Shown: positions 4,246 to 52,556, counted from the stretch's first letter. The stretch is 64,000 bases of DNA from Planctomycetota bacterium (GCA_028289345.1 JANQQL010000050.1:202370-266369); one strand, 5' to 3'. A program made the numbers and translations. Notes: generated by a model not told the origin, from the sequence alone.

Positions 4246-5708
4246 AAGCGCGCCGAGGACTGCGCTGGAAAGCCATGACGACGGTCGGTGGGCTGATGTT
4301 TTTCTTGTCCCTTACGCTGGCCGGATTCATCTTTGCTTCCGCCACCAAGGAAGCGGGAATCCTTCGTTCGCAGCGAGTCAATCTTCTTGCCGAGCAAGTG
4401 GCCCACCGATGGATGCAAGCCACCGATCGCCTCGACGAAGAGCTTCTCTCCTCCCTCTTGTCAAATTTCGTCGAAGACCCATTTCTGGAAGGTGCAGCGG
4501 TCCTCGACAGGCACGGTCAGGTGATCGCTCGGGCCGGCACCGTTCCGGAGTCGATTCCGGGACCGGACAACGAACACTGGTCCCAGGCAGATCGGGCACC
4601 CATGCCCGTCGACTCGAAAGATCTTGCGACCAACGCCCCGTCTCCCTTCGTCTTCGCCGCGTTCGTGTCTCCTGGAGAAGAGACTCGATCGCTGCTGGGT
4701 GCGGCCTCGAGCATCTTGTGGATCGTGCTGGGAGTCACCATGGCCGCGATCATCTTGGCCTGGATCTCCACCCAGTCACTGATTCTCCCGCTCCTACAAC
4801 TCGTGCGCGCAACGGGACAAGTGGCAGATGGAGACCGAACGGCTCCGGTGGCAACCAAACGCCGCGATGAGCTTGGTCTTCTGTCACGCGCGTTCCAACG
4901 AATGGCGGATCGCATCATCGCGGTTCACGAAGACCTCGAAGCGCACAACGCTTCCCTCGAACTCGCGGTGGAGCAGCGCAAGCGTGAGTTGCAGTCGGCC
5001 TACCAAGAAACAGAGCAAGTCGACCAACTCAAAGACAACCTTCTGCAGAACGTCGCGCTGCGCATGGACAAGCCCTTGGAGAATCTGCGCCAAGCAACCG
5101 AGCAGCTGGCAACAGCGGCGCCCGAGTCGGCTCCTTCTCACGCAACTCTTCTCCTGCAGCGGGGCCGGAACCTCGAAGGAATCGTCGACGATGCGCTCGA
5201 CTGCGCGGCTCTCGAATCCCCCGATCTCGAATGGGACCGTTCAGCAACCGACGTTGCGGAGCTTCTCGCGTTGGGCAAAGAGCACTTGGGAGAGCGCTTC
5301 TCTCGTCGCGACCAGACTTGCGCGATCGCGATGCCGGACTTCGGGGGCGCTCGGTTTCTTTGGCAACGTCAGCGAATGCAACAGGTCTTTCGCTACCTGC
5401 TCGCCACCTTGGCCCGCCAATCTCCCCTGGGCGCGGAGTTGATCGTGGAAGGACGGTGCACCGACTCGCAAACCGCCGCAATCTGTTTCACCTCCCAGGG
5501 GGGGAGTGAGACAGACCACTCGGAGCCGTTCCCTCCCGCCGGGCTCGGTCTTTGTCAGGAAGTCGTCGAGCGTCACGGAGGATCCCTGACAACACCCGCA
5601 GAGAACTCCGGGGGATTCGAACTCCAGTTCCCTCTCTCCGGTGAAGAGGAAGTGGTCACGAACTCGAGTGGCCCCTCGTCCCGGCAAGTTTCGGCTTTTC
5701 CCGACTGA
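4242..5708 (+). CDS. histidine-kinase-like protein lacking the phospho-acceptor His (TM, HAMP, degenerate HisKA, degenerate HATPase)
   Basis: Start ATG overlaps the stop of the upstream kinase (ATGA). TM segments, then HAMP motif ELGLLSRAFQRMADRI. The H-box position reads NVALRMDKPLENL, with Leu where His is expected (compare SHEFRTPL upstream). The C-terminus has GLGLCQEVVERHGGSL but no clear D/G1 box. Confidence 0.7.
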   Translation: MKARRGLRWKAMTTVGGLMFFLSLTLAGFIFASATKEAGILRSQRVNLLAEQVAHRWMQATDRLDEELLSSLLSNFVEDPFLEGAAVLDRHGQVIARAGTVPESIPGPDNEHWSQADRAPMPVDSKDLATNAPSPFVFAAFVSPGEETRSLLGAASSILWIVLGVTMAAIILAWISTQSLILPLLQLVRATGQVADGDRTAPVATKRRDELGLLSRAFQRMADRIIAVHEDLEAHNASLELAVEQRKRELQSAYQETEQVDQLKDNLLQNVALRMDKPLENLRQATEQLATAAPESAPSHATLLLQRGRNLEGIVDDALDCAALESPDLEWDRSATDVAELLALGKEHLGERFSRRDQTCAIAMPDFGGARFLWQRQRMQQVFRYLLATLARQSPLGAELIVEGRCTDSQTAAICFTSQGGSETDHSEPFPPAGLGLCQEVVERHGGSLTTPAENSGGFELQFPLSGEEEVVTNSSGPSSRQVSAFPD

Positions 5709-5762
5709 TCAAGCCCCGACTCGAACATTGTTCGGATCCGTCCGCGCCTTGGGCACTCCCCG

Positions 5763-6233
5763 TCACAGGTCTGCCACTTCTCCTCGCAAGGCGCGCAGCA
5801 TCGCCATCGCGTACCCCAGGTGGATGCCTTCGTGGAAGTTGTTGAACTTGATCGCCTCGTCGACGCTCTTTAACGGGATCCCCGCGGACGTCACGTACGG
5901 GCGGAACTTTTCAAACCGTCCCGACTCGTAGTCTTCGGCGAGCATTTCGGGGAACGCCGTGAGCTGTTCTTTGATTCGCGCGAGATCCGGCAACTCTTCC
6001 CAGCGCTCGGGTGAGGACCCCTTCTGAAACATCTCGACGGTGGCATCGTCGACCATCATTGGGAGCCCGGAGAGCTTGTAGTGCAAGAGCTGCTGGGTGA
6101 CGACCACGTGGCCAACATTCCACAGGATGTTGTTGCGGAATCCGGTGGGCGTTTCCAGCAGCAAGTCATCGTTCTTGTCGGCGAACTTTCGAAACAATGC
6201 GCGAATGCCTTTGAGTTGTTCGATCTCAATCAT
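5763..6233 (-). CDS. DinB/YfiT-like family protein
   Basis: Resembles DinB_2/YfiT-type four-helix metal-binding proteins, including the motif HEGIHLGYAMAM. Start taken at MIEIEQL inside ORF 5763..6281. Confidence 0.65.
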   Translation of the reverse strand: MIEIEQLKGIRALFRKFADKNDDLLLETPTGFRNNILWNVGHVVVTQQLLHYKLSGLPMMVDDATVEMFQKGSSPERWEELPDLARIKEQLTAFPEMLAEDYESGRFEKFRPYVTSAGIPLKSVDEAIKFNNFHEGIHLGYAMAMLRALRGEVADL

Positions 6234-6281
6234 TTCCACCTCCTGGCCTCCGGAAGACTGTCGCGAATCTCGATCACGCAC

Positions 6282-7676
6282 TCAGCCTTCCAGAACCTCC
6301 CCTTTCTTCACGATGGCCTGTTCCGATCCGTCGTTTTGCATGGACACTTTGCCTCGGGCGACGACCCCCTCCTGGAAACGAAAGTCTCCCCGAACCTCGA
6401 GGCGTTCGCAATCGATCAATGAAGGCGCCCCGTCGGCGAAACGGTCGGAGAAATCGTCGATTCCCTTGAAATACCGGGAATCCAGGTCGACCACGAGCTT
6501 CCGCAGCCGGCTTTCGTCCACCGGAAGCATTCGGCTCTCTTCGGTCAGGACATACTGATCCGACCACAGTGCGAGCAGGTCATTGGTCGTTTTCACCGGC
6601 GCAAAGCGAGAGCGCGGGACCACCACTGCCTGGGCATTGTCGAAGGACGAGATCGCCGCCCCCATGGCGGTCTCCAGCTGGTACACCTTCGGGCTCGCCG
6701 GGTCCCCGGAGTCCGCGGTCTTCTGGTTGCGGATCATCGGCAGCCCCAGCACCGAGTCGTTCTCCTTCAATGTCTTCTCGAGCGCGCCCAAGTTCAGCCA
6801 CAGACTGTTGGTATTGAAGAACCGGTACTTTTCGATGTTCTGGAAGTCATCCTTTTCTTCGTCCGGACACTGGGCAGATTCTCGCAACGTCAATCGTCCG
6901 TTGGCGAGCAACGCCAAGTGACCACCCTTCTTGTCGGCTTCGGTGCGCCGCGCGACTTCCATCGCGAACGGCACCTCTTTGCCGGCGAACCAACCGAGCA
7001 GGTTCAGGTCCAAGACGGCTCCCAGGTTGTCAGCGTTGGAAACAAACGCGTAATCGATCCCTTGGTTGCGCAGCGTTTCGAGCATGCCCGACGTTTGCAA
7101 GGCGGTGTAGATGTCGCCATGTCCGGGAGGACACCATTCCGCGTTCGCGTCCGCTGGCCATTCGAGCGGGGCCAGATCGTCCACCCGAATCCGAGGCACT
7201 TTGTGCTGCAAGAAGTCGAGCGGCACTCCACTCGCCAGCCCCTCGTGCCGACTCAACGCCTGCAGCGAATCGTCCCGGGTTCGGAAGCTGTTCATCAACA
7301 CCAAAGGCAGATTGCAGTCATGGGTTCGGCGCAGATGCAGTACCTGCCCGGCAATGATGTCCAGGAACGAGCGCCCCTCTTTCACCGGCAAGAGCGACTT
7401 GGCCCGAGTCATCCCCATGCTCGTCCCCAAGCCTCCATTGAGCTTGATGACCACGGCGCGATTCAAGGCCTGGGCTCCGGCATCTTCATGACCGGTCAGA
7501 TCTTCATAGGCCGGAACCTTCTCGACGGGCGCGATGTCCGCCTGGGTGAGCAGTCCCGTCTCCCCTTTGCGCAAGAGGTCAAAGTAGTGGGCGAAGGTGT
7601 CGATGGCGATGGGGGCCAGTCCGGCGCCTTCCATCTTGGTTCGAAACGGGCCAAAACCCTCGGGGTCGCGGCTCAC
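6282..7676 (-). CDS. UTP--glucose-1-phosphate uridylyltransferase, eukaryotic UDPGP type
   Basis: Motifs KLNGGLGTSMG, FVSNADNLGA and the overall 464-aa architecture match the UGP2/UDPGP family, not bacterial GalU. Confidence 0.85.
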   Translation of the reverse strand: MSRDPEGFGPFRTKMEGAGLAPIAIDTFAHYFDLLRKGETGLLTQADIAPVEKVPAYEDLTGHEDAGAQALNRAVVIKLNGGLGTSMGMTRAKSLLPVKEGRSFLDIIAGQVLHLRRTHDCNLPLVLMNSFRTRDDSLQALSRHEGLASGVPLDFLQHKVPRIRVDDLAPLEWPADANAEWCPPGHGDIYTALQTSGMLETLRNQGIDYAFVSNADNLGAVLDLNLLGWFAGKEVPFAMEVARRTEADKKGGHLALLANGRLTLRESAQCPDEEKDDFQNIEKYRFFNTNSLWLNLGALEKTLKENDSVLGLPMIRNQKTADSGDPASPKVYQLETAMGAAISSFDNAQAVVVPRSRFAPVKTTNDLLALWSDQYVLTEESRMLPVDESRLRKLVVDLDSRYFKGIDDFSDRFADGAPSLIDCERLEVRGDFRFQEGVVARGKVSMQNDGSEQAIVKKGEVLEG

Positions 7677-7747
7677 GGCAGCCTCCTTCGTTTGCTTGGG
7701 GTCGCAGGGGTTGGTGGCGGCATCGGCCCGATCCCCCGGAGCGACGT

Positions 7748-8242
7748 TCAGCTTCCTTTTCGGCGATCGAGGGTCAGGAACACGAACGGGACCGCGTGAC
7801 GCTCATCCGGCTCGAACGTCTCCTTTTCGACCTCGACCCAATCTTCGTCCTGCAACTCCGGAAAGACTGTGTCGCCCTCGTACTCCGCATCGATTCGGGT
7901 GAGATAGATGCGATCGGCCTGGTCGAGAAGCTCGCGGTACACCACGCCCCCGCCCAACACCATCAACTCCGGGTGACCCTCGGCGATCTCCAGGGCTTGG
8001 TCGAAGTCGTGCACGATCACCGTGCCCTCGACCCGGTAGTCCCGATCCCGAGTCAGAATGATGTTGGTGCGCCCGGGCAGCGGCTTCCCGACGGTCTCGA
8101 ATGTCTTGCGGCCCATGAGGATCGGCTTGCCCATGGTCAGCTCTTTGACCCGCCGCAGGTCCTTGGGCAGGTGCCACGGCAAACCGTCGTCCTTACCGAT
8201 CACGCCGTTCTTCGCGGCTGCTACCAGGAACGAGATGCGCAT
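7748..8242 (-). CDS. folA: dihydrofolate reductase
   Basis: [49 protein letters not shown] is a classic DHFR N-terminus. The ATG overlaps the thyA stop by 1 nt. Confidence 0.9.
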   Translation of the reverse strand: MRISFLVAAAKNGVIGKDDGLPWHLPKDLRRVKELTMGKPILMGRKTFETVGKPLPGRTNIILTRDRDYRVEGTVIVHDFDQALEIAEGHPELMVLGGGVVYRELLDQADRIYLTRIDAEYEGDTVFPELQDEDWVEVEKETFEPDERHAVPFVFLTLDRRKGS

Positions 8243-18026: not shown

Positions 18027-18637
18027 CCTGAGAACTCCTTGAGGAACGCGCTTCTTCGGGACTCTCATCCTCCTCGGCGTTGGTGGGAGGAGCGCGACGC
18101 CGCACGGCTCGCTCCGTCCGCTTTCAAGGCCTGATCGATAATAGCCCCGGGATTCCCGGGCGAGGATTACGAGAAGGTTATGGCGATCGGCTCTCTTCGC
18201 CTCGCGCCCACCAGGCCGTTGAGCAGGCCTGCTGGCGGGCGACGGGCCCAAGGCGAACGGCCTGAGAAGCGGATCCCTCCGTCTCCCGGGGCGCCGGTTC
18301 GAGGCTTCGTGTTCGGTTGATTTCTTCCCTCCCCTACGGGTCGCGCAAGTTCCGGGATCGAATGGCGCACTCGGTCGTATAAGGAAGCAACCGTGGTGTC
18401 CTCCGGGAGAAAACTGGCCGCGGAGGTGGTGCCCGCACTCACTTCGCAGGTCCACCATTCGGCCTGGAAGGAATGTTCCGGTCGCGGTCTTCGGTTCGAG
18501 TTTCTGCAGATTCCCTGGATCCGTGGTCCTCAATCAATCGAAGACAAGACCGGTCCCGGCGGTGGGAAGCTGACCAGGAATCCGCTTCCCGGACGCCTCG
18601 TGGAATGGCCTGTCCCGCTCTGGATGAGAGAACTTTC

Positions 18638-19750
18638 ATGACCATGTCTCGATGGCTTCTGGCCGCCTGCCTCGCAGTGGCCGCTTGCGCGAACGACGAA
18701 CGATCCGTTTCCGCGACCGACTCGGTTCCGGCAGCGATGGCCGCTCCGGAAACTCTTTCCGTGGCCACCCTGGCAGGGGGCTGCTTCTGGTGCGTGGAGG
18801 CCCCCTTTGAAAAGGTTCCCGGAGTCGCGTCCGCGGTCTCCGGATACACCGGCGGGCACGTGAACGAACCGACCTACGAGCAGGTTTGCGCCGGCACCAC
18901 GGGCCATACCGAAGCCGTACAGGTGTTCTACGACCCCTCGGTCATCCGCTACGAAGACCTGCTCGAGGTGTTCTGGCGACAGATCAATCCGACCGATGCG
19001 GGTGGCCAGTTCGCCGACCGCGGCACCCAATACCGGACCGAGATCTTCTATCACGACGAAGCTCAACGAGTCGCCGCAGAAAAGTCGCGTGCCGCGTTGC
19101 AGGCGTCCGGCCGCTTTGACAAGAAGATCGTCACGGCGATCACCAAGCTCGAAAAGTTCTACGACGCCGAGGACTACCACCAGGACTACTACAAGAAGAA
19201 GCCCAGTCACTACCAGCGCTATCGCACCGGCTCCGGTCGCGACCGTTACCTGGACTCGGTGTGGGGCAAGGATCGCCAGGTGAGTTTCTCCACGCCCGCT
19301 TCTGCCTCGAAGAAGCTCCCCACGAAGGACGAGTTGAAGAAGACCTTGACCGAACTCCAGTACCGGGTGACCCAAGAGGACGGCACTGAACCGCCTTTCC
19401 GCAACGAGTACTGGGACAACAAAAAGCCCGGCCTGTACGTCGACATTGTGTCTGGGGAGCCGCTGTTCAGCTCCACGGACAAGTTCGATTCGGGCACCGG
19501 CTGGCCCAGCTTCACCGCTCCCGTGGCGGAACAGGCCTTGGCTTTCCACGAAGATCGCAAGCTTGGCTACGTGCGCAGTGAAGTCCGCAGCGCGGTCGCC
19601 GACTCGCACCTGGGGCACGTGTTCCCCGACGGTCCCGAGCCCACGGGCTTGCGCTACTGCATCAACTCCGCCGCCCTCCGATTCATCCCGGTGGCCGAAC
19701 TCGACAAAGAGGGGTACGGCAAGTACCGCGAACTGTTCATCGAAGACTGA
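18638..19750 (+). CDS. msrAB: bifunctional peptide-methionine sulfoxide reductase MsrA/MsrB, lipoprotein-type
   Basis: Signal/lipobox [10 protein letters not shown], MsrA active site GGCFWC, and an MsrB domain with GWPSF ... HLGHVF ... RYCINS. Confidence 0.9.
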
Positions 19751-34213: not shown

Positions 34214-34574
34214 CGAGCGTCATTCCTCATTCAACAGTGTCCCTCGGAACGAGACTTCTGCGGCGGGGTCGAGCCCAAGAACCCGCTCGCCAGGCCCTCC
34301 GCATTCGGACCGCACCGTGTGCCTCCGCGAGCATTCTCACTCGGGTTCGCCGATGTGGGGGAGCCACGCTCGCAACCAGCACCTCCACCTGCCCTCCAAC
34401 ATCCGGCCGTCCCCGCCGTATCGCTGCCGCGAAGGTCCCGGTCGTGTCACCCGTCGTCCGAACTCCGCCCGGGAACGCGCGCCCAAGGAAGTCAGGGCCG
34501 TCACACCTTGTGCGTGATCTCCGCCGAGCGATGATCGCGCCTCCAATCTCTTGAACGATGGGAGCAACCTTCAC

Positions 34575-37500
34575 ATGAACCGACTGCTGGGCTCGATCAC
34601 TTTGCTTCTGGCCGGGATGGCCAATCCTGCGAGCGGGCAGGAAGAAGCCCGTTTGCTGCGCTTCCCCCACATTCAGGGCGATCGTATCGCGTTCGTCTAC
34701 GGCGGGGACATCTGGACCTCGACCGCTCAGGGCGGACCGGCCCGACGCATCACCAGTCACGACGAAGGATTCGAGCTGTTCCCGCGGATCTCTCCCGACG
34801 GTCAGTGGATCGCTTTCTCGGCCGAGTACTCCGGATCGAGGCAGATCTACCTGGTGCCTTTCCAAGGTGGGCAGCCGCGCCAGCTCACGTTCTATCCGGA
34901 CGTCGGCCCCATGCCTCCGCGGGGTGGCTACGACCACCTGCCGTTCGACTGGACGCCGGACGGCAAGAAGCTGCTGATCAAGGCCAATCGAACGCCCTAC
35001 GGACAGCGAGTCGCTCGCTACTTCCTGGTCGACCCGTGGAACGGAGGACTGGAAGAGCCGCTGCAGATTCCCGAAGGCGGCCCGGCTTCCTTTTCTCCCG
35101 ACGGGACCAAACTCGCCTACAACATCATCAGCCGCGAATGGCGCACCTGGAAGCGGTACAAGGCGGGGCGAGCTCAGGACATCTTCGTTTACGACCTGCA
35201 GCGAGACACCATCGACCAGATCACCGACTTCAATGGCACGGACAACTTCCCGATGTGGGTGGGCAATCGCATCTACTTCACTTCGGATCGCACCGGCACG
35301 TTGAATCTCTACCGGCACGACCTCGAAACCAAGGAAACCACCCAGATCACCACTTTCACCGACTTCGACGTGCTCTTCCCGAGTCGTGGTCGCGGGGGCG
35401 TCATCTTCGAGTGTGGCGGCTGGCTGTACGTGATGGACACCAAAGACGAAACCGTGCGTCGCTTGTCCATCAACCTGGCCGACGACCGCCCGTGGCTGCG
35501 CCCGTCGTGGAAGTCGGGCAGCGTGGCCTCCTACGACATTTCTCCTTCCGCCAAGCGAGCGGTGGTCGAGTACCGCGGCGAGGTGTTCGACGTGCCCGCC
35601 AAGAACGGTCGCGGCCGCAACTTGACCAGGACCCCGGATCGCCGCGAGCACTCGGTGAACTGGTCGCCGGACGGCAAGCACATCTCCTATCTGGCAGAGG
35701 TGGGAGAGGACTACGAGCTGTTCGTGCGTTCGACGGTGAGCGGCGAAGAGCGCCAGCTCACGAACAACAGCGGCGCCTGGATCCTCGGCACTTCGTGGTC
35801 GCCGAACTCGGAGCACATCGCGTTCGCCGACAAGGCCAATCAGCTGCGCTTGGTGAATGTGGAGAGTGGCGACGTCTCGACCCTGGATCGATCGACGGAA
35901 GGAACCATCAACTCCGCTTCCTGGTCCGGAGACAGCCACTGGCTGACGTACACCAAGAGTTCGCCGAATGGTTTCAACTCGGTGTGGGTGTGCCCGATTC
36001 GTGACGGCAAGCCGACCCAGGTGACCACCGATCACTATCAAGACGGCAGCCCCGCCTTCGACCCGGATGGCAACTACCTGTACTTCGTTTCGGCCCGAGA
36101 CTTCCAGTTCGGTGACATGAACTTCGACTCGCGTCTGTACGCGCTGCTGCTGCGGGAAGACGTGGATTCCCCGCTGGCGCCGAAGGAAGACGTGGAGGCG
36201 GCCACCGAGGAAGAGGAGGAAGACGAAGCAGACGGCGGGAACGAGCAGGAGGATGGCGGCGAAGAAGACGCCGGCGCGGACGCGAACGCCGAATCCAAGG
36301 ACGAAGCGAGTGACACCGAAGAAGCGGCCGACGAAGCCAAGGATGCCGCGGACTCGGATGATGACACCGGAGACTCCGAAGAAGAGGAAGACGAACCGCT
36401 CCAGATCGACCTCGACGGGATCATGGATCGCTTGGTCGCGCTGCCAGGGAGCCCGGGCAGCTACTTCAATCTGGAAGGCGTCCCCGGCGGCTTCTTGTTC
36501 GTGAGCAACGGCAACCTCCAGCGCTACGACCTGGAAGGGCGCGAGGCCAAGACCGTGCTGGAAGGCGTCAGTGGTTACATGACCACGCCGGATGGCAAGA
36601 AGCTGCTGTATCGCTACCGCGGGAATCTCGCGATCTCTGGTGCGACCCCGGGACAGAAGGCGGGTGCCTCTCCGGTGCGCGTGGACGAGGTCGAAGTGCG
36701 GATCGACCCGCGAGTCGAGTGGGCCCAGATCTACATGGACGCCTGGCGCATCATGCGCGACTGGTTCTACGACACCGAAATGCATGGCGTCGACTGGCGC
36801 GGAATGCGGGAGAAGTACGAACCGTTGGTTCCTCACGTCGCCCATCGCGACGATCTGGACTTCCTGATGGGTGAGCTGATCGGTGAGCTCAACGCCGGTC
36901 ACACCTACGTGTTCCCGGGAGAGTCCCCGCGAGTGAACCGGGTCGACACCGGGACGCTGGGTTGCGACTTCGTCAAGGACTCCGGCCGCTACCGCATTTC
37001 CAAGATCTTCGGCGGTCGCCGCTGGAACGCCTCCGAGCGCTCCCCGTTGGCCCAAGCCGGGGTCGACGCCAAGGAAAATGATTACCTGCTGGAGATCGAC
37101 GGGCACGACGTCACAACCTCAGACAATCCGTTCCGGTTCCTGGAGAACCGGGTTGGTGTTCAGGTCACCTTGCTGTTGAACGACAAGCCGGAAAAGGAAG
37201 GTGCTCGGGAAGTCGTGGTGACGCCGATCGCTTCGGAAGTCACTTTGCGCTACATCGACTGGGTCGAGTCCAATGCGGCGATGGTCGACGAACTCTCGGA
37301 CGGACGCATCGGCTACGTGCACGTTCCCAACACCGCGGTGCCCGGTCATCGGGCCCTGTTCGAAGGCTTCCCTCCCCAAGCGCGGGTCAAGGATGCCATG
37401 ATCATCGACGACCGCTACAACGGTGGCGGGTTCATCCCGGCGCGCATGATCGCCTCCCTCGCCTCGCCGGTCCTGAACTATTGGTCCCAGCGAGAGACCA

Positions 37501-37913
37501 CCTTGAGCGCCACCCCGGCCACCGGGTTTGACGGCCCCATGGCCATGCTGATCAACGGCTACTCGAGCTCCGGCGGTGACGCGTTCCCCTTCTACTTCCG
37601 TCGCCTGGGACTCGGAAAGCTCATCGGCAAGACCACCTGGGGCGGACTGATCGGCTATTCCGGCTCGCCCAACATGGTGGACGGCGGCGGGCTTGCCGTT
37701 CCCAGCTTCTCGTTCGTCAACCTGGACGGGGAGTGGGACGTGGAAGCCGTCGGGGTCGATCCGGACATCGAGGTTTTCGATGACCCGACCCAGATCCAGG
37801 CTGGCCGCCAGCCGACCCTGGAAGCCGCGGTGAAACACCTGCTCGAAGAACTCGAGCGCAATCCTCCGCCGGTCACCCCGCCGACGCCGGCGGGTCCCAA
37901 GCGGAACAAGTAG
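34575..37913 (+). CDS. tricorn protease homolog (S41-family C-terminal peptidase, beta-propeller and PDZ)
   Basis: Signal peptide. The N-terminus RFPHIQGDRIAFVYGGDIWTS ... SPDGQWIAFSAEY ... LTFYP is the characteristic tricorn start. There is a C-terminal S41 peptidase region and an unusual acidic insert near 36170..36420. Confidence 0.85.
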   Translation: MNRLLGSITLLLAGMANPASGQEEARLLRFPHIQGDRIAFVYGGDIWTSTAQGGPARRITSHDEGFELFPRISPDGQWIAFSAEYSGSRQIYLVPFQGGQPRQLTFYPDVGPMPPRGGYDHLPFDWTPDGKKLLIKANRTPYGQRVARYFLVDPWNGGLEEPLQIPEGGPASFSPDGTKLAYNIISREWRTWKRYKAGRAQDIFVYDLQRDTIDQITDFNGTDNFPMWVGNRIYFTSDRTGTLNLYRHDLETKETTQITTFTDFDVLFPSRGRGGVIFECGGWLYVMDTKDETVRRLSINLADDRPWLRPSWKSGSVASYDISPSAKRAVVEYRGEVFDVPAKNGRGRNLTRTPDRREHSVNWSPDGKHISYLAEVGEDYELFVRSTVSGEERQLTNNSGAWILGTSWSPNSEHIAFADKANQLRLVNVESGDVSTLDRSTEGTINSASWSGDSHWLTYTKSSPNGFNSVWVCPIRDGKPTQVTTDHYQDGSPAFDPDGNYLYFVSARDFQFGDMNFDSRLYALLLREDVDSPLAPKEDVEAATEEEEEDEADGGNEQEDGGEEDAGADANAESKDEASDTEEAADEAKDAADSDDDTGDSEEEEDEPLQIDLDGIMDRLVALPGSPGSYFNLEGVPGGFLFVSNGNLQRYDLEGREAKTVLEGVSGYMTTPDGKKLLYRYRGNLAISGATPGQKAGASPVRVDEVEVRIDPRVEWAQIYMDAWRIMRDWFYDTEMHGVDWRGMREKYEPLVPHVAHRDDLDFLMGELIGELNAGHTYVFPGESPRVNRVDTGTLGCDFVKDSGRYRISKIFGGRRWNASERSPLAQAGVDAKENDYLLEIDGHDVTTSDNPFRFLENRVGVQVTLLLNDKPEKEGAREVVVTPIASEVTLRYIDWVESNAAMVDELSDGRIGYVHVPNTAVPGHRALFEGFPPQARVKDAMIIDDRYNGGGFIPARMIASLASPVLNYWSQRETTLSATPATGFDGPMAMLINGYSSSGGDAFPFYFRRLGLGKLIGKTTWGGLIGYSGSPNMVDGGGLAVPSFSFVNLDGEWDVEAVGVDPDIEVFDDPTQIQAGRQPTLEAAVKHLLEELERNPPPVTPPTPAGPKRNK

Positions 37914-38561: not shown

Positions 38562-38657
38562 GTCGTCATCCGGCGCCGAGGCGCGATCCTCGGGCCGGTG
38601 AAACTGCCACGGCACCGGATGACGAGGAACCGACCAGTGATCGAGTCGGACTCCTGG

Positions 38658-39176
38658 CTACTCCAGGTTCTCGATCAGGGTCAGCAGTGCGTCCCCATGC
38701 GCGCGCACGTCCACTTCTTCGTCGATGTGGCGAAGAACGCCTTCACTGTCGATGATGAAGGTGACGCGCTTGCTGTAGGCACCGTTGGGCATGAGCACGC
38801 CGTACTTGCGGGCGGCGCTACCGTCGGGGTCGCTCAACAAGGGAAAATTCAGGCCCTCGTTCTTGGCGAACGCGGCCTGGGAAGCGACGTCGTCGAGGCT
38901 GATGCCGTAGACCTGAACCCCTAGAATTTCGAAGTCGTCCGCTGCGTCCCGCAGCGAGTTCACTTCCATGGTTCAGCCAGGGGTGGCGGCCTTGGGGTAG
39001 AAGGCCAACACGGTCCAGTCGAAGTCTTCGCCGGCCGGAACTTCCGTCAGCTTTCCTTCGTGATTGTTGAGGCGAAGCTTCGGAGCGGGTTGCCCGACTT
39101 CGGGCATCTTCATTTCGTCCGCCACCGAGAACGCCAACGTGGCCGCCGCAGCAGCGACCAGGAAGAGTGACTTCAT
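38658..39176 (-). CDS. secreted peroxiredoxin (AhpC/TSA/Bcp family) with in-frame UGA at the peroxidatic Cys position; candidate selenoprotein
   Basis: Two adjacent same-frame ORFs (38973..39320 and 38658..38969) are separated only by TGA at 38975..38973. The joined protein reads signal peptide MKSLFLVAAAAATLAFS ... WTVLAFYPKAATPG-U-TMEVNSLRD ... GISLDDVASQAAFAKNEGLNFPLLSDPDGSAARKYGV. The TGA sits exactly where Prx has Cys in FYPKDFTPGCT. A perfect 7-bp hairpin lies 14 nt downstream. Confidence 0.6.
38938..38958 (-). ncRNA. candidate bacterial SECIS-like hairpin downstream of the in-frame UGA
   Basis: On the minus strand: UGA ACC AUG GAA GUG AAC U-CGCUGCG-GGA-CGCAGCG. A 7-bp perfect stem (8 with a U-G pair) and a GGA loop start 14 nt after the UGA. 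Confidence 0.4.
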
Positions 39177-39616
39177 CGCGAAACTCCTTTTGCGCGAGTG
39201 GCGATTCCAAGGTCCCGGACACGGTCTCCCGGAAGCGCAACTCGCGGTGTCAAACAGGTTCGAGCGGAGCAGGGCAAGTGGTTTCGAGTTGCCGTGGACG
39301 AAGCGCGAAGAGCCGATCAAAAGTGGGACGGATTCAGGGTGTGCCTAGCACGCGGCGCGGCTCGAGACTGTCCGGATTGTCGAGATCCCCGAATGCTTTT
39401 CAAGCGTGCCGGCGTCGATCCAACCAACGAGGTGGCCTGAGGAATCGACAAAGCCCCCGGCGGGTTCACCACGTGGTGAACAGACCTCCGTGACCCGCAC
39501 GCGGACCCCGACCAGCTCTCCCCCCGATGGCGGTCCCGTGCACCCACGCTGTCGGACCCGGGCATTCTGAGGGAATGCGCTCGGGGCCCACTCGGAAAGT
39601 CCCTATCGTCCTCGCC

Positions 39617-47847: not shown

Positions 47848-48927
47848 CTAGCTCCCCGAGGGCAGCCGTCGCAACAGGAACGGAGCAATGGTGCGGGCGG
47901 CCAAGCGGTGAGCGACGTCGTTTGGGGCAGGGTCCTCGGGATGAACCCAGAGGTCTGTCGCTTCCTGGCCGCGAAAGGCCGGCAGCAAATCCAACATGCC
48001 AATCCCTTGGTTCTGGCAATGGGTGCTCAGCTTTTCGTGGAGCCGGTGGAACGGGTAGGAATCCGAGAGGTTGTGCAAGAAAGGGAACAACACGACGCAG
48101 AACTCTCCCCCGCTGGCCTGCACGATTTGCTTGGCGTGAGTGAGGAGCGACAAACTGTTCTCCCAACGTGCGGCTTGGCTCGAACCGAGCATCACCGACT
48201 CTTCCAAGAAGCGACGCGTCTGAGTTCGACGATCGAACACCTCGTGGGCGCAGTTGGCCAGGGATGACCATTTGCCGAAGCCCGGGTTCTCGGGATTGCG
48301 GTACTCGTTCCACAGTTGCAGCTCGCCCAAGTCCCGAGTGTCGTCCAGGGTCGTGACCATGAGCACCACATCGGGATTGAACTCGAGGCCCCGAAACTGC
48401 AGGTAGTTGAGTTCGTCTTCGGTGTTCCACGGACCCACGGCGCAGACATACACCTCCACGGCCAAACCGTAGTGATGCTCGAGCACCGACTCGAGCTGCT
48501 TCCCCATGGTGTGTTCGAGGTGCACGCCTTCTCCGAAAGCGACCGCATCTCCGAGAATCATGACCCTCGGCACCCCCGGAGTCCGCTCCGCGCAGAAATC
48601 CGAACCGCGAAAGCCCTCGCTGTTCAACACGCAGGTCACTTCGCCGTGAAACCCGAAGTAGCCGCGGGGGTTGGACGGGTACACGAAATGCACTTCGGAT
48701 CCGGGATGGAGCTGAGTGCTCACTCCCGTGACCCGGTTGCGGGGCAAGCGGATGAGCGCCGCCTCGAATCCATGGGCCGTCGGGGTTCCGCTGGCCTGTC
48801 CGATGCCAATCAAACGAAACACACCCTCGGCGCTTAGTAGCGCGCCCAGGGCAAAGATTGGCGCCACCCACCAACGACTCCAGCGCGGGTGAGCCAGGTT
48901 GATCGAGATCGGAAAGAGTTTCGCCAT
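47848..48927 (-). CDS. SGNH/GDSL-like hydrolase family hypothetical protein
   Basis: N-terminal TM/signal segment; a VMILGDAVAFGEGV block resembles SGNH block I. Non-repetitive composition. Confidence 0.5.
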   Translation of the reverse strand: MAKLFPISINLAHPRWSRWWVAPIFALGALLSAEGVFRLIGIGQASGTPTAHGFEAALIRLPRNRVTGVSTQLHPGSEVHFVYPSNPRGYFGFHGEVTCVLNSEGFRGSDFCAERTPGVPRVMILGDAVAFGEGVHLEHTMGKQLESVLEHHYGLAVEVYVCAVGPWNTEDELNYLQFRGLEFNPDVVLMVTTLDDTRDLGELQLWNEYRNPENPGFGKWSSLANCAHEVFDRRTQTRRFLEESVMLGSSQAARWENSLSLLTHAKQIVQASGGEFCVVLFPFLHNLSDSYPFHRLHEKLSTHCQNQGIGMLDLLPAFRGQEATDLWVHPEDPAPNDVAHRLAARTIAPFLLRRLPSGS

Positions 48928-48972
48928 CGACAACGGTCCCGTGTTCTCTTTCGGCCGGGGCGGGGCCCGTGC

Positions 48973-49797
48973 TCAGAGGAAAACGGAGAGCCGGCGGAAG
49001 GCGTCCTCGGCGATCTGGGCGGCGCGGTGGCTGTCCCGGGACAGCTCGACCCCGAGAGGACCGGAATATCCCTGAGCCCGAAGCTGGCGGAGCACCGAGG
49101 CGAAGTCGATTTCCCCCTCGCCGATGGGCAGGTGTTCGTGCACTCCACGGTGACCGTCGTCGAGCTGCACGTTGCGCAAAGTGGCCTGAAACTCTTCCAG
49201 GTGATCGGCGGGTTGACCGGGTTCCGTGGCCAGGAGATGCCCGACGTCGAGAGTCGTCGCCAAATCATCCCTGCCCAAACGGCGGCGCAGCTCTCGGTAA
49301 CTGGCGAGATCCCCCACCAGCATGCCGGGCTCCGGCTCCAGGGCGACGACCACCCCCCGCTCGGTCGCGCTGTCGAGCACGTGGGGCAAGCGCTGCTCCA
49401 ACAACTCCCAAGCCCGTTCCTGGGAAGTGCCCGGCTCCGGAGCCCCGCTCCAGAGGGAGATCAGGTTCGCCCCGACCCCTTGGGCCAGACGGCAGCAGTC
49501 CGCGTAGTACTCCAGCCGCCGCTGGGCTGCCGACTCGTCGGCGGTCACCAAGTTGGGCCAGTGCTTGCGACGAGGGTCGAGGACGTAGCGCGCCCCGGTT
49601 TCGACGACACAGCGCAAGCCGAGGTCCTCGAGCAGTTGTCGAAAGGCGGACCAGTCGTCCGGGCCGGTCGCGCGCAGATCGAGGTGAGGCACGTCCGGAG
49701 TCAGCGCGACTCCGCCGTAGCCCAGATCCGCCAGCATTCGGACCGCGTCTTCCAGTCGATGGTGGGCCAGGCCATTGGTGTTGTAGGCCAGGTACAT
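48973..49797 (-). CDS. sugar phosphate isomerase/epimerase (xylose-isomerase-like TIM barrel)
   Basis: N-terminus YLAYNTNGLAHH ... GYGGVAL and a metal-binding E/D/H/E pattern typical of AP_endonuc_2/TIM-barrel isomerases. Confidence 0.7.
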   Translation of the reverse strand: MYLAYNTNGLAHHRLEDAVRMLADLGYGGVALTPDVPHLDLRATGPDDWSAFRQLLEDLGLRCVVETGARYVLDPRRKHWPNLVTADESAAQRRLEYYADCCRLAQGVGANLISLWSGAPEPGTSQERAWELLEQRLPHVLDSATERGVVVALEPEPGMLVGDLASYRELRRRLGRDDLATTLDVGHLLATEPGQPADHLEEFQATLRNVQLDDGHRGVHEHLPIGEGEIDFASVLRQLRAQGYSGPLGVELSRDSHRAAQIAEDAFRRLSVFL

Positions 49798-49817
49798 GGA
49801 CGACGAGGGCGGCCCAC

Positions 49818-51197
49818 TCATCGGGCTCGCTCCAGCAACGACGCGTAGCCACCGTCCCCACCATCATCTTCGGGAAGGGTCTCGTGAGATTCGATCAATG
49901 CGAAGTCGGTCGAGCTCTCCAAGAACCGTCGAACTTGCTGCGTGTTCTCTTCGTCTTCGATGCTGCAGGTCGAGTACAGCAGCTTGCCGCCCGGAGCCAC
50001 TCGAGCCGCGGCCTTCTTCAGCAAGTCGCCCTGCAATTGTCGCAAGGTCTCCAGGTGCTTGGCATCGAGACGATCCCGAGCTTCGGGGCGTCGCCGCAAG
50101 ACCCCGCTGTTGGAACAGGGCGCGTCCAGCAAGACCCCGTCAAAGCCGGTATCGAACGGTGCGGGAAACGGCTCCGGGTCCCGGGCATCCGCCTGAACCA
50201 CGGACACCGACTTCACTCCCAGCCGCAGGACGGTTTCCTTCAACCGATCGACCCGGCTCTCTTCCCGGTCGACTGCCAGGATCTGCGCCTGATCCCCGCT
50301 GAGTTCGGCCAAGTGGGTTGCCTTGCCCCCGGGTGCGGCGCACAAGTCCAAGTACTTGTGATGGGGCTCCGGGCCCAATAGAGGAGCGATCGCCATGGCT
50401 GTTTCGTCCTGCACGGTGCACCGGCCACTGCGGAACGCCTTGCTGCGCACCAGTTCCGCGGCAGGTGCCGCGACGACGATGGACTCGGGAAGCTTGCCCT
50501 CCAAGCAGCGAATGCCTTCGCCGCGAAGCTGCTCCAGCGTGTGCTCTCGATCCCTTCCCAATAGATTGGCTCGCACGAACAGCGGCGCTGGACGGTTGTT
50601 TCGATGCAACAGTTCTTCACAGCGCTCCCGACCCCAGCGATCCAGCCAGCGCTGAACCATCTCGGCCGGATGATTGGTGATCGCCGCCAAATACTCCGCC
50701 GGCTGTTGCTCAGGATCGGGGAACACCGGGCGCGAGAAGAAGCACACCTTCTTGTCGCGGATCAGCAGCCGCTTGGTCTCGGACGCGCCGCCTCGATCGC
50801 GGTCCAAGGGAACGCGACGAATCTGGCGATCCATGGCCCGCAGAACTCCGTTCACGAAACTTCGCCGGCGGGGCGGGCCCGACAGCTGGGCGACCGTTTC
50901 ATGGATCGCAGCGAACGCGGGAACTCCGTCCAAGTACAGCAACTGGTAGAGGCCCAGACGCAGGGATTGGAGGACCGCCCGTTCCAACTCGTCGAGAGGC
51001 ACTCGCGAGTAGGCAGCGAGGATGGCGTCCAAGGTCCGACGGTGACGAAGCACGCCCAGGACCAGCTCCGTCAGGAACCCGCGCTCCCGCTTCTTAAGGT
51101 TCTTTTCCTGACAGGCTTGGTGAATGCGCTCGGTCGCGAATCCTCGCGAACCGCGTTCGAGGTCCCCCAGAATTCGCGTGGCGACGGCGCGCACCAT
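49818..51197 (-). CDS. rsmB: 16S rRNA (cytosine967-C5)-methyltransferase
   Basis: NusB-like N-terminus, SAM-binding DLCAAPGGK, and catalytic region DAPCSNSGVLRRRPE ... YSTCSI. Confidence 0.85.
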   Translation of the reverse strand: MVRAVATRILGDLERGSRGFATERIHQACQEKNLKKRERGFLTELVLGVLRHRRTLDAILAAYSRVPLDELERAVLQSLRLGLYQLLYLDGVPAFAAIHETVAQLSGPPRRRSFVNGVLRAMDRQIRRVPLDRDRGGASETKRLLIRDKKVCFFSRPVFPDPEQQPAEYLAAITNHPAEMVQRWLDRWGRERCEELLHRNNRPAPLFVRANLLGRDREHTLEQLRGEGIRCLEGKLPESIVVAAPAAELVRSKAFRSGRCTVQDETAMAIAPLLGPEPHHKYLDLCAAPGGKATHLAELSGDQAQILAVDREESRVDRLKETVLRLGVKSVSVVQADARDPEPFPAPFDTGFDGVLLDAPCSNSGVLRRRPEARDRLDAKHLETLRQLQGDLLKKAAARVAPGGKLLYSTCSIEDEENTQQVRRFLESSTDFALIESHETLPEDDGGDGGYASLLERAR

Positions 51198-52214: not shown

Positions 52215-52556
52215 TCACAATTGGACGCCGGTCGCCTGGGTCACGACATCCTTGAGCTTGTCGACAGTGAGCTGTCCCGCGCCGACCAACTTGTGCTTCA
52301 TTTCTCCGCCCTGGAAAACCAGCAGCGTGGGAATCGCGGTGATTCCGTAGCTGGACGGAGTTCGCTCGTGATCCTGGGTGTTGTGCTTGACGACCTTCAC
52401 CTTGCCGGCAGTCGCTCCGGCGAAGGATTCGATGGTGGGTGCCAGTGCTCGGCAGGGGCCACACCAAGGTGCCCAGAAGTCGACGACGACCGGCTCGGAC
52501 GCCTTCAGGACTTCCTGCTCGAAAGAATCGTCAGTCGTTTCCAGGAGATCGGCCAT
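52215..52556 (-). CDS. trxA: thioredoxin
   Basis: 113 aa with FWAPWCGPCR active site and GIRSIPTLL-like ITAIPTLLVF. Confidence 0.9.
   Translation of the reverse strand: MADLLETTDDSFEQEVLKASEPVVVDFWAPWCGPCRALAPTIESFAGATAGKVKVVKHNTQDHERTPSSYGITAIPTLLVFQGGEMKHKLVGAGQLTVDKLKDVVTQATGVQL

Follow-up and report, generated by a model that had tools for sequence, protein, structure and literature searches.

In the 64,000-nucleotide stretch of a Planctomycetota genome analysed here (GCA_028289345.1, JANQQL010000050.1:202370-266369; hereafter the window), the minus-strand interval 39176..38658 appears, with a probability that we put at about 0.9 from sequence comparison, to be one intact gene for a selenocysteine (Sec)-containing peroxiredoxin (Prx) of the PrxQ/BCP type. 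By open reading frame (ORF) listing and translation, this AhpC/TSA-family gene runs from ATG 39176 to the TAG stop at 38660..38658 over 172 codons, made up of 67 sense codons, an in-frame TGA at 38975..38973 and 104 further sense codons. The initial annotation, made from the sequence alone, had noticed two minus-strand ORFs in one frame separated only by this TGA, and the ORF listing and translation bear this out (the second ORF is 38969..38658). It had also held that the joined ORFs would give a complete Bcp/AhpC-like peroxiredoxin, and a full-model Pfam match together with matches to solved BCP/PrxQ structures agrees with that. The product reads MKSLF...FYPKAATPG-U-TMEVNSLRD...IENLE, and the whole protein contains not a single Cys. 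The features on which the argument turns are the following:

38658..39176, minus strand: candidate selenoprotein gene, complete, with Sec as codon 68 (ORFs, translation, Pfam, structure matches, orthologues conserved on both sides of the TGA)
38973..38975, minus strand: in-frame TGA, read as U68, at the peroxidatic position of the PxxxTxxC motif (FYPKAATPG-U-T; alignment to the Cys of TPGCT; 90 TGA and 19 Cys relatives)
38958..38960, minus strand: AAC, Asn73, at position U+5 (sequence and comparison with relatives)
38766..38768, minus strand: CGC, Arg137, the conserved active-site peroxiredoxin Arg (KRVTFIID; aligns with the conserved Arg of 5epf and 5iph; invariant in family alignment A3)

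Scored with Cys in place of U, the protein gives a match to the Pfam model AhpC-TSA (PF00578) of 120.7 bits against a cut-off of 26, over model positions 1-124 of 124 (E 4e-35), and its fold was assigned through sequence matches to the solved BCP/PrxQ structures 5epf, 5iph and 5iiz (phmmer, E 1e-17 to 1e-18). In alignments to these three structures the TGA column coincides with the peroxidatic C of TPGCT, exactly where the initial annotation had placed it. The active-site motif P61-K-A-A-T65-P-G-U68 and Arg137 are both present, supplying the catalytic triad's Thr and Arg, and both are invariant in alignment A3. The best NCBIfam matches are the BCP/PrxQ equivalogs, at scores under their cut-offs (NF006960, 93 bits against 140; NF053650, 78 against 260), which makes the protein PrxQ/BCP-like by best match and not an equivalog. 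Nor does it belong to the experimentally known selenoprotein PrxU as modelled by NF040737 (59 bits against a cut-off of 270), and the resolving Cys of the CxxxxC arrangement that marks atypical 2-Cys PrxQ is replaced by Asn73 at U+5. What it does share is the hallmark of the bacterial selenoprotein Prx (TxxU) family: a UGA aligned with the redox Cys and conserved sequence on both of its flanks, with FYPKAxTxG kept before the UGA and (S/A)LRD after it.

The in-frame TGA among relatives

Why would a stop codon sit at the catalytic residue of an otherwise intact gene? Relatives were drawn from 80 loci in one-genome-per-species bacterial and archaeal assemblies and 80 loci in metagenomes, with the frame read upstream of each match. 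In the species-genome collection, 46 of 53 family loci carry TGA at the same codon and 7 carry TGC, almost all of these loci being labelled Planctomycetota, and the TGA stands in the context F-Y-P-K-A-x-T-x-G-TGA-T. Across the two collections, 90 distinct sequences have TGA and 19 distinct close relatives have Cys (TGC). Cys is the sole alternative residue at the column, so the alignment to Cys-containing homologues proposed in the initial annotation comes out as a column that alternates only between TGA and Cys (90 TGA and 19 Cys forms), and the amino acids on both sides of the TGA are conserved across the relatives. The TGA-bearing relatives are Planctomycetota metagenome-assembled genomes (MAGs) and unassigned metagenome contigs; every labelled genome with a member of this Sec-PrxQ clade is either Planctomycetota or unclassified. 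In a rough neighbour-joining tree, Cys forms occur at about 10 places nested in the Sec clade, with a Fitch minimum of 11 changes over the whole tree.

When the joined protein was searched against the protein database, the matches fell into two groups: many full-length relatives of the Cys type, 175-185 amino acids (aa) long, and more than 30 short relatives of 102-104 aa, 56-73% identical, all of which begin just after the TGA position. Judged by their sequences, these short proteins are the footprint that gene callers leave on a selenoprotein family.

The same truncated records could be taken to mean that the gene is dying. A nonsense mutation from TGC to TGA at the catalytic Cys needs one base change and would leave two ORFs as decaying remnants, and in the output of gene callers and in GenBank the locus and its relatives do appear as a 67-aa ORF and a truncated protein of 102-103 aa. 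A pseudogene of this kind is nevertheless very improbable: the TGA recurs in 90 distinct sequences at 50-73% protein identity, with both halves conserved and no other stops or frameshifts, a state that would not persist over such divergence, and the alignments do not suggest a ratio of nonsynonymous to synonymous change (dN/dS) near 1. The covariation of the downstream hairpin and the conservation of synonymous sites, both specific to the TGA forms and described below, speak against it as well. The initial annotation had argued that a stop exactly at the catalytic residue was unlikely to arise by chance, and the 90 distinct homologues with the same TGA exclude chance; the recent nonsense mutation that it named as a possible refutation is contradicted by the homologues, among which TGA is the norm.

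The position five residues after U68 sets the window copy apart from most of its relatives. A resolving Cys occupies this position in 87 of the 90 Sec-type and 18 of the 19 Cys-type relatives, whereas the window copy has Asn (AAC, 38960..38958). The earlier statement that no resolving Cys lies 4-5 residues downstream is accurate, and with no Cys anywhere in the protein its impression of a 1-Cys/Sec-type Prx also holds, in the form of a 1-Sec variant within a U-x4-C clade. The U+5 Cys is also lost in two other Sec forms (L121, with Arg, and L128, with Gly; metagenome contigs), and the 1-Sec state is rare, at 3 of 90.

Might either the TGA or the Asn73 codon be an assembly or sequencing error in a metagenome-derived contig? 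The source is a MAG or a Logan assembly, and the two records with the gene may share the same reads. However, the NCBI and Logan contigs encode the same C-terminal protein; TGA is the family norm, converting AAC to TGC or TGT needs two base changes, and L121 and L128 have independently lost the U+5 Cys. We regard an error at either codon as hardly credible.

Two further ideas about TGA in the window were considered and rejected. One is reassignment of TGA in the genetic code: TGA ends 53 of 83 long ORFs in the window and is its most frequent stop. The other is that additional same-frame ORF pairs joined by TGA might be selenoprotein genes; the two pairs found, both on the minus strand, are ordinary neighbouring genes: at 5763-7802 a small gene comes after one resembling UDP-glucose pyrophosphorylase, and at 47848-49863 a hydrolase-like gene comes after one resembling a sugar-phosphate isomerase.

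The hairpin downstream of the TGA

The second line of evidence is a hairpin inside the coding sequence, a candidate bacterial selenocysteine insertion sequence (SECIS; the bacterial form, bSECIS), with a possible lower helix around it:

38939..38957, minus strand: putative SECIS upper stem-loop, U38957-G38939 plus 7 Watson-Crick pairs, loop GGA (fold, covariation, Sec/Cys contrast, bSECIS constraints)
38931..38966, minus strand: possible lower SECIS helix, GAAGU 38966..38962 with ACUUC 38935..38931, enclosing the upper stem-loop (RNAfold)

The upper stem consists of CGCUGCG (38956..38950) and CGCAGCG (38946..38940) around a GGA loop (38949..38947), and the extra U-G pair extends it to 8 bp; alone, the hairpin folds at -11.9 kcal/mol (RNAfold). 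Sixteen nucleotides (38972..38957) lie between the UGA and the 7-bp stem, and the loop begins 23 nt past the UGA. The initial annotation had described this 7-bp hairpin and its SECIS-like spacing correctly; its figure of 14 nt for the distance from the UGA was wrong, the actual value being 16. Published bSECIS constraints, as quoted in PMC13188914, are an apical loop of 3-9 nt, an upper stem of 4-16 bp, a G in the first two loop positions, usually G[G/U], a distance of 16-37 nt from UGA to loop, and a minimum free energy of -7.5 kcal/mol or lower. The fold check after the UGA that the initial annotation had proposed places the hairpin within all of these limits when they are applied by hand (loop 3 nt, stem 8 bp, GG, 23 nt, -11.9 kcal/mol). 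Rfam gave no match at gathering score and no bacterial SECIS family; over the hairpin region it gave only chance-level miRNA and snoRNA matches at E up to 10.

Conservation was followed in alignment A2, which holds 47 Sec-type sequences (the window and species genomes) and is gap-free from the UGA onward. Columns 19-26 with 30-37, the upper stem, are paired in 94% of cells, and if the partner strand is slid by 1-3 columns, overall pairing falls from 87% to 28-44%. Covariation is seen at the closing pair (U-A in 24 sequences, U-G in 12, G-C in 9), through changes that are non-synonymous on both sides: Ser alternates with Ala on the 5' side, while on the 3' side Thr, Lys, Glu or Gly alternates with Pro or Gln. 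From these 47 aligned sequences RNAalifold recovered only 4 of the 8 pairs, while the explicit pair count and per-sequence folds show the full hairpin. Seven relatives (L015, L042, L046, L047, L049, L141 and L146) have a hairpin shifted in register by 2 nt, with a 5-nt loop CG(U/G)GA; it is equally long, spans about 17-37 nt after the TGA, and reads CUCACUG-CGUGA-CAGUGAG in L046 and L047.

The contrast between Sec and Cys forms is sharper still. A hairpin of at least 7 contiguous bp is found in 86 of 90 Sec forms and in 1 of 19 Cys forms (Fisher p ~8e-16, a value inflated by relatedness, as taken up below). The third base of the Arg codon that starts the loop is constrained in the Sec forms, which use CGG 83 times, CGT 7 times and CGC never, whereas 13 of the 19 Cys forms use CGC, the codon that accounts for 43% of Arg codons in the window's genes. 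Likewise, the Ala at +10 is encoded by GCA in 67 of 71 Ala-coding Sec forms and in none of 10 Cys forms, against a background in which GCA makes up 6% of Ala codons in the window's genes. Because the synonymous sites are frozen and the hairpin is kept in the TGA forms and not in the Cys forms, selection appears to act on the RNA: as these sequence comparisons have it, the hairpin region is under selection beyond the needs of the SLRDAA peptide, and only where an upstream TGA is present. The same comparison of codon usage rejects the idea that the hairpin is a by-product of the SLRDAA peptide. A hairpin not conserved in relatives was another refutation that the initial annotation had foreseen; what is found is a hairpin that is conserved, covarying and lost in Cys forms.

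The single Cys form that retains the hairpin, L051, adjoins Sec forms in the neighbour-joining tree and has the appearance of a lineage that recently exchanged Sec for Cys and still carries the hairpin as a fossil. Separately, in the Cys forms L011/L012 and L106, which are nested among Sec forms, the hairpin is partly degraded and has the look of a fossil SECIS.

These observations bear on whether the UGA might be used without Sec, either by near-cognate read-through as Trp or Cys or by termination followed by re-initiation at ATG 38969, which would yield a 103-aa C-terminal fragment. Such a reading could point to the Sec machinery not being seen in the accessible sequence and to the ATG that lies two codons past the TGA in the window copy. 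That ATG is not conserved, however, relatives having TREV, TKEV or TLEV; the C-terminal fragment would be without the PxxxTxxC active site, and Trp at the peroxidatic position would inactivate the enzyme. A hairpin with a G-G or G-U loop start 23 nt from the UGA fits the SelB-binding bSECIS model and would not be predicted from a read-through context, and Cys as the sole alternative residue in the column is the signature of Sec/Cys pairs. We consider decoding of the UGA without Sec improbable, if a little less so than a pseudogene or an error in the sequence. The reading that we prefer, a Sec-containing peroxiredoxin as the initial annotation proposed, draws support from the TGA/Cys column, the conserved and covarying hairpin and the bSECIS constraints together.

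Export, mechanism and the weight of the evidence

The N-terminus suggests that the enzyme works outside the cytoplasm:

39120..39176, minus strand: predicted signal peptide of the Sec-translocon type (MKSLFLVAAAAATLAFSVA followed by DE...), without a lipobox and without a twin-arginine motif (hydropathy heuristic)

The first 19-23 residues, with the predicted cut between MKSLFLVAAAAATLAFSVA and DE, combine a hydrophobic core (Kyte-Doolittle score 2.3) with small residues at -3 and -1, and they form an N-terminal extension of 23 residues relative to the cytoplasmic BCP structures, whose alignments begin at residues 22-28. A comparable N-terminal hydrophobic stretch is found in 86 of 110 family members and in 4 of 19 outgroup sequences. 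Going by these sequence features, the Sec-Prx is probably exported via the Sec translocon to the periplasm or the cell envelope.

A mechanism can be sketched from these parts, in which we infer SelB dependence, export, the peroxide substrate and the reductant. The UGA at 38975..38973 would be recoded as Sec during translation, with the hairpin at 38957..38939, lying inside the coding sequence, serving as the bacterial SECIS through which SelB-GTP-Sec-tRNA(Sec) is brought to the ribosome; SelB delivery at this hairpin is suggested by analogy with established bacterial Sec insertion. The signal peptide would then direct the product to the periplasm or cell envelope, where the U68 selenolate, activated by Thr65 and Arg137, would reduce H2O2 or organic hydroperoxides and itself become a selenenic acid. 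In nearly all relatives the U+5 Cys would then close an intramolecular selenenylsulfide, the route known from atypical 2-Cys PrxQ. The window copy, with Asn at U+5 and not one Cys along its length, would instead need an external thiol partner to reduce its selenenic acid directly, in a 1-Sec mechanism.

Two other redox genes in the window deserve mention in their own right. At 18473-19750 on the plus strand, 19 kb from the Sec-Prx gene, lies an MsrA-MsrB fusion (PF01625 and PF01641) with an N-terminus resembling a lipoprotein signal and with Cys, not Sec, at its active sites (GCFWC, RYCINS); it is a second apparently exported enzyme for repair of oxidative damage, and together with the Sec-Prx it would need an envelope reducing pathway. 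A 113-aa thioredoxin gene at about 52215-52556 on the minus strand (L162 185-526) lies 13 kb from prx and adjoins scpA, with no evidence of linkage to prx.

The pieces can be combined into a single broader reading: that the window copy is a natural exported 1-Sec envelope peroxiredoxin without a resolving Cys, recycled directly by an envelope reductant, as a member of a large clade of secreted Sec-PrxQ proteins, found mainly in Planctomycetota and systematically overlooked in public annotation, and that the SECIS shapes the protein sequence through paired non-synonymous changes of its closing pair. We hold this combination only tentatively, at somewhat less than even odds.

A number of points weigh against the selenocysteine reading or its broader extension. 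The support for the predicted Sec insertion at U68 comes from sequence comparison, and all relatives are metagenome-assembled. The Fisher p values of 1e-9 to 1e-15 for the Sec/Cys contrasts treat related sequences as independent and are overstated for that reason, yet the tree puts the Cys forms at about 10 separate points. The lower SECIS helix is weakly supported, with 75% of cells paired across relatives and one of its pairs mostly unpaired. The signal-peptide call comes from hydropathy and a (-3,-1) heuristic. A conserved gene neighbourhood that might hint at the reductant was sought, and no neighbour family recurs in more than 14 of 135 loci; no gene for an envelope reductant (ScsB, DsbD or TlpA) is linked to the window's prx gene.

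Finally, neither the window with the 9 kb to its right nor the related loci contain selA, selB, selD or tRNA-Sec, an absence that is uninformative because about 73 kb of a 607-kb contig is covered. ARAGORN found no tRNA genes in the 64-kb window and no tRNA-Sec in the window and 54 loci; six-frame motif scans of the window found no SelA, SelB or SelD motifs; and no sel genes appear by Pfam among 20 further window ORFs or in the Pfam annotations of L001 and L162, which reach 9 kb past the right end of the window. A tblastn search with the SelD of L062 gave no match in the window or in Planctomycetota loci. Planctomycetes with selenoproteins are on record (Gemmata obscuriglobus with 3, Isosphaera pallida with 1 and planctomycete KSU-1 with 6; PMC5029168 supplement), and we take Sec-decoding machinery in the source genome to be likely. 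As a side observation, L062 itself, from a Vulcanimicrobiota MAG, has a Cys-type selD at 5181-6230 on the plus strand, about 4 kb from a Cys-type BCP homologue, a proximity that is probably coincidental.

Genomic setting, annotation and known systems

The prx gene appears to be monocistronic, with a homocysteine S-methyltransferase gene diverging from it on one side and an HD-domain gene converging on it from the other. Three elements surround it:

39184..39188, minus strand: Shine-Dalgarno-like AGGAG, 7 nt upstream of ATG 39176 (direct sequence reading)
39376..39403, minus strand: sigma-70-like promoter match, TTGAAA and GACAAT with 16 nt between them, some 200 nt before the prx start codon (consensus scan, pattern match only)
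38563..38625, no strand assigned: 20-nt inverted repeat, 90% complementary, with a 23-nt spacer (arms 38563-38582 and 38606-38625), after the prx stop and between the convergent prx and HD-domain genes

The promoter consensus scan gave 1 site against 0.1 expected from shuffles. The inverted repeat would probably serve as a bidirectional terminator; it is without a T-run, and the terminator scan made no call at 38563..38625. Elsewhere in the window, at 34551-37913 on the plus strand, is a gene whose 1120-aa product is a tricorn-like protease with Tricorn_N, PDZ and Peptidase_S41 domains and with an insert of about 80 residues that is low in complexity and extremely acidic (EEEEEDEADGGNEQEDGGEEDAG...).

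In public databases the clade is recorded in truncated form, in GenBank and IMG alike, because no NCBIfam selenoprotein model captures it. Examples are the 102-aa 'peroxiredoxin' records MDP6929666.1, MGE3174824.1 and MCA8950017.1 (relatives P0108, P0109 and P0119), which start just after the Sec codon; read in the light of their sequences, such records are a systematic mis-annotation of a selenoprotein family. At least 90 Planctomycetota or metagenome relatives are shown as 102-104 aa, and a selenoprotein-aware model of the clade would correct these records and add Planctomycetota to the lineages that routinely use selenium for peroxide defence. The clade also supplies a data set of Sec/Cys pairs with about 10 independent reversions to Cys, some with fossil hairpins, that could help in asking what Sec buys a peroxiredoxin. 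It offers a clear case of a SECIS within a coding sequence constraining codon choice and even amino-acid choice, and, in an enzyme that seems to be exported, the missing resolving Cys gives a hint of a testable 1-Sec mechanism.

How does the window gene compare with known systems? Peroxiredoxin (TxxU; PF00578/COG1225) is an established bacterial selenoprotein family (PMC1794560, PMC2398784, PMC5029168, PMC9312934, PMC13188914), with 12 genes reported in 2006 (PMC1794560), 253 in GOS data (PMC2398784) and 91 genes in 78 genomes in 2016 (PMC5029168); it is among the commonest known bacterial selenoprotein families. Repeated Cys-to-Sec changes in Prx have likewise been described (PMC1794560). The window gene shares with this family the AhpC/TSA fold, Sec at the T-x-x-U peroxidatic site, abundant Cys homologues, a bSECIS after the UGA in the coding sequence, and repeated Sec/Cys interconversion; its clade differs in being mainly Planctomycetota, in having a signal peptide, and in being matched by no NCBIfam selenoprotein model. 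Sec-peroxiredoxins, their SECIS elements and Sec/Cys interconversion are therefore already established, and the current understanding of them is unchanged. What is specific to the clade is its mainly Planctomycetota distribution, the signal peptide, the U-x4-C arrangement that the window copy has lost, and the truncated annotation.

Individual enzymes give closer points of reference. PrxU of Eubacterium acidaminophilum is an experimentally verified Sec peroxiredoxin (Sohling et al. 2001, cited in PMC13188914; also cited in PMC9312934). In PrxU, as in the window protein, Sec replaces the peroxidatic Cys, but PrxU, with about 230 aa, is cytoplasmic and comes from an anaerobic Firmicute, whereas the window protein has 172 aa, is PrxQ/BCP-like and carries a predicted signal peptide; by their sequences the two belong to different Prx subfamilies (59 bits against 270). 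The Cys-type BCP/PrxQ proteins (Xanthomonas campestris BCP, 5iiz, 5iph and 3gkk; 5epf; E. coli BCP, NF006960) share PxxxTxxC and the conserved Arg with the window protein, and the resolving Cys at CP+5, five residues after the peroxidatic Cys, with its relatives. They are cytoplasmic, Cys-based and without a signal peptide, in contrast to the putative Sec enzyme of the window, which is without the CP+5 Cys.

A parallel for the proposed location is PprX, a cell-envelope peroxiredoxin of Caulobacter crescentus that is reduced via ScsB and TlpA (PMC3322552). It provides a precedent for an exported peroxiredoxin that works in an oxidising envelope on electrons from a DsbD-like membrane transporter, and although PprX is Cys-based, its route is by analogy the most plausible model for how an exported Sec-Prx might be recycled. 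At the RNA level the window hairpin resembles the E. coli fdhF SECIS and the bSECIS model in being a stem-loop just 3' of the UGA within the ORF, with a small G-G/G-U loop and a stable upper stem; it differs from fdhF in its 3-nt GGA loop and in a perfect stem without the bulged U, and its binding by SelB is a prediction from this likeness.

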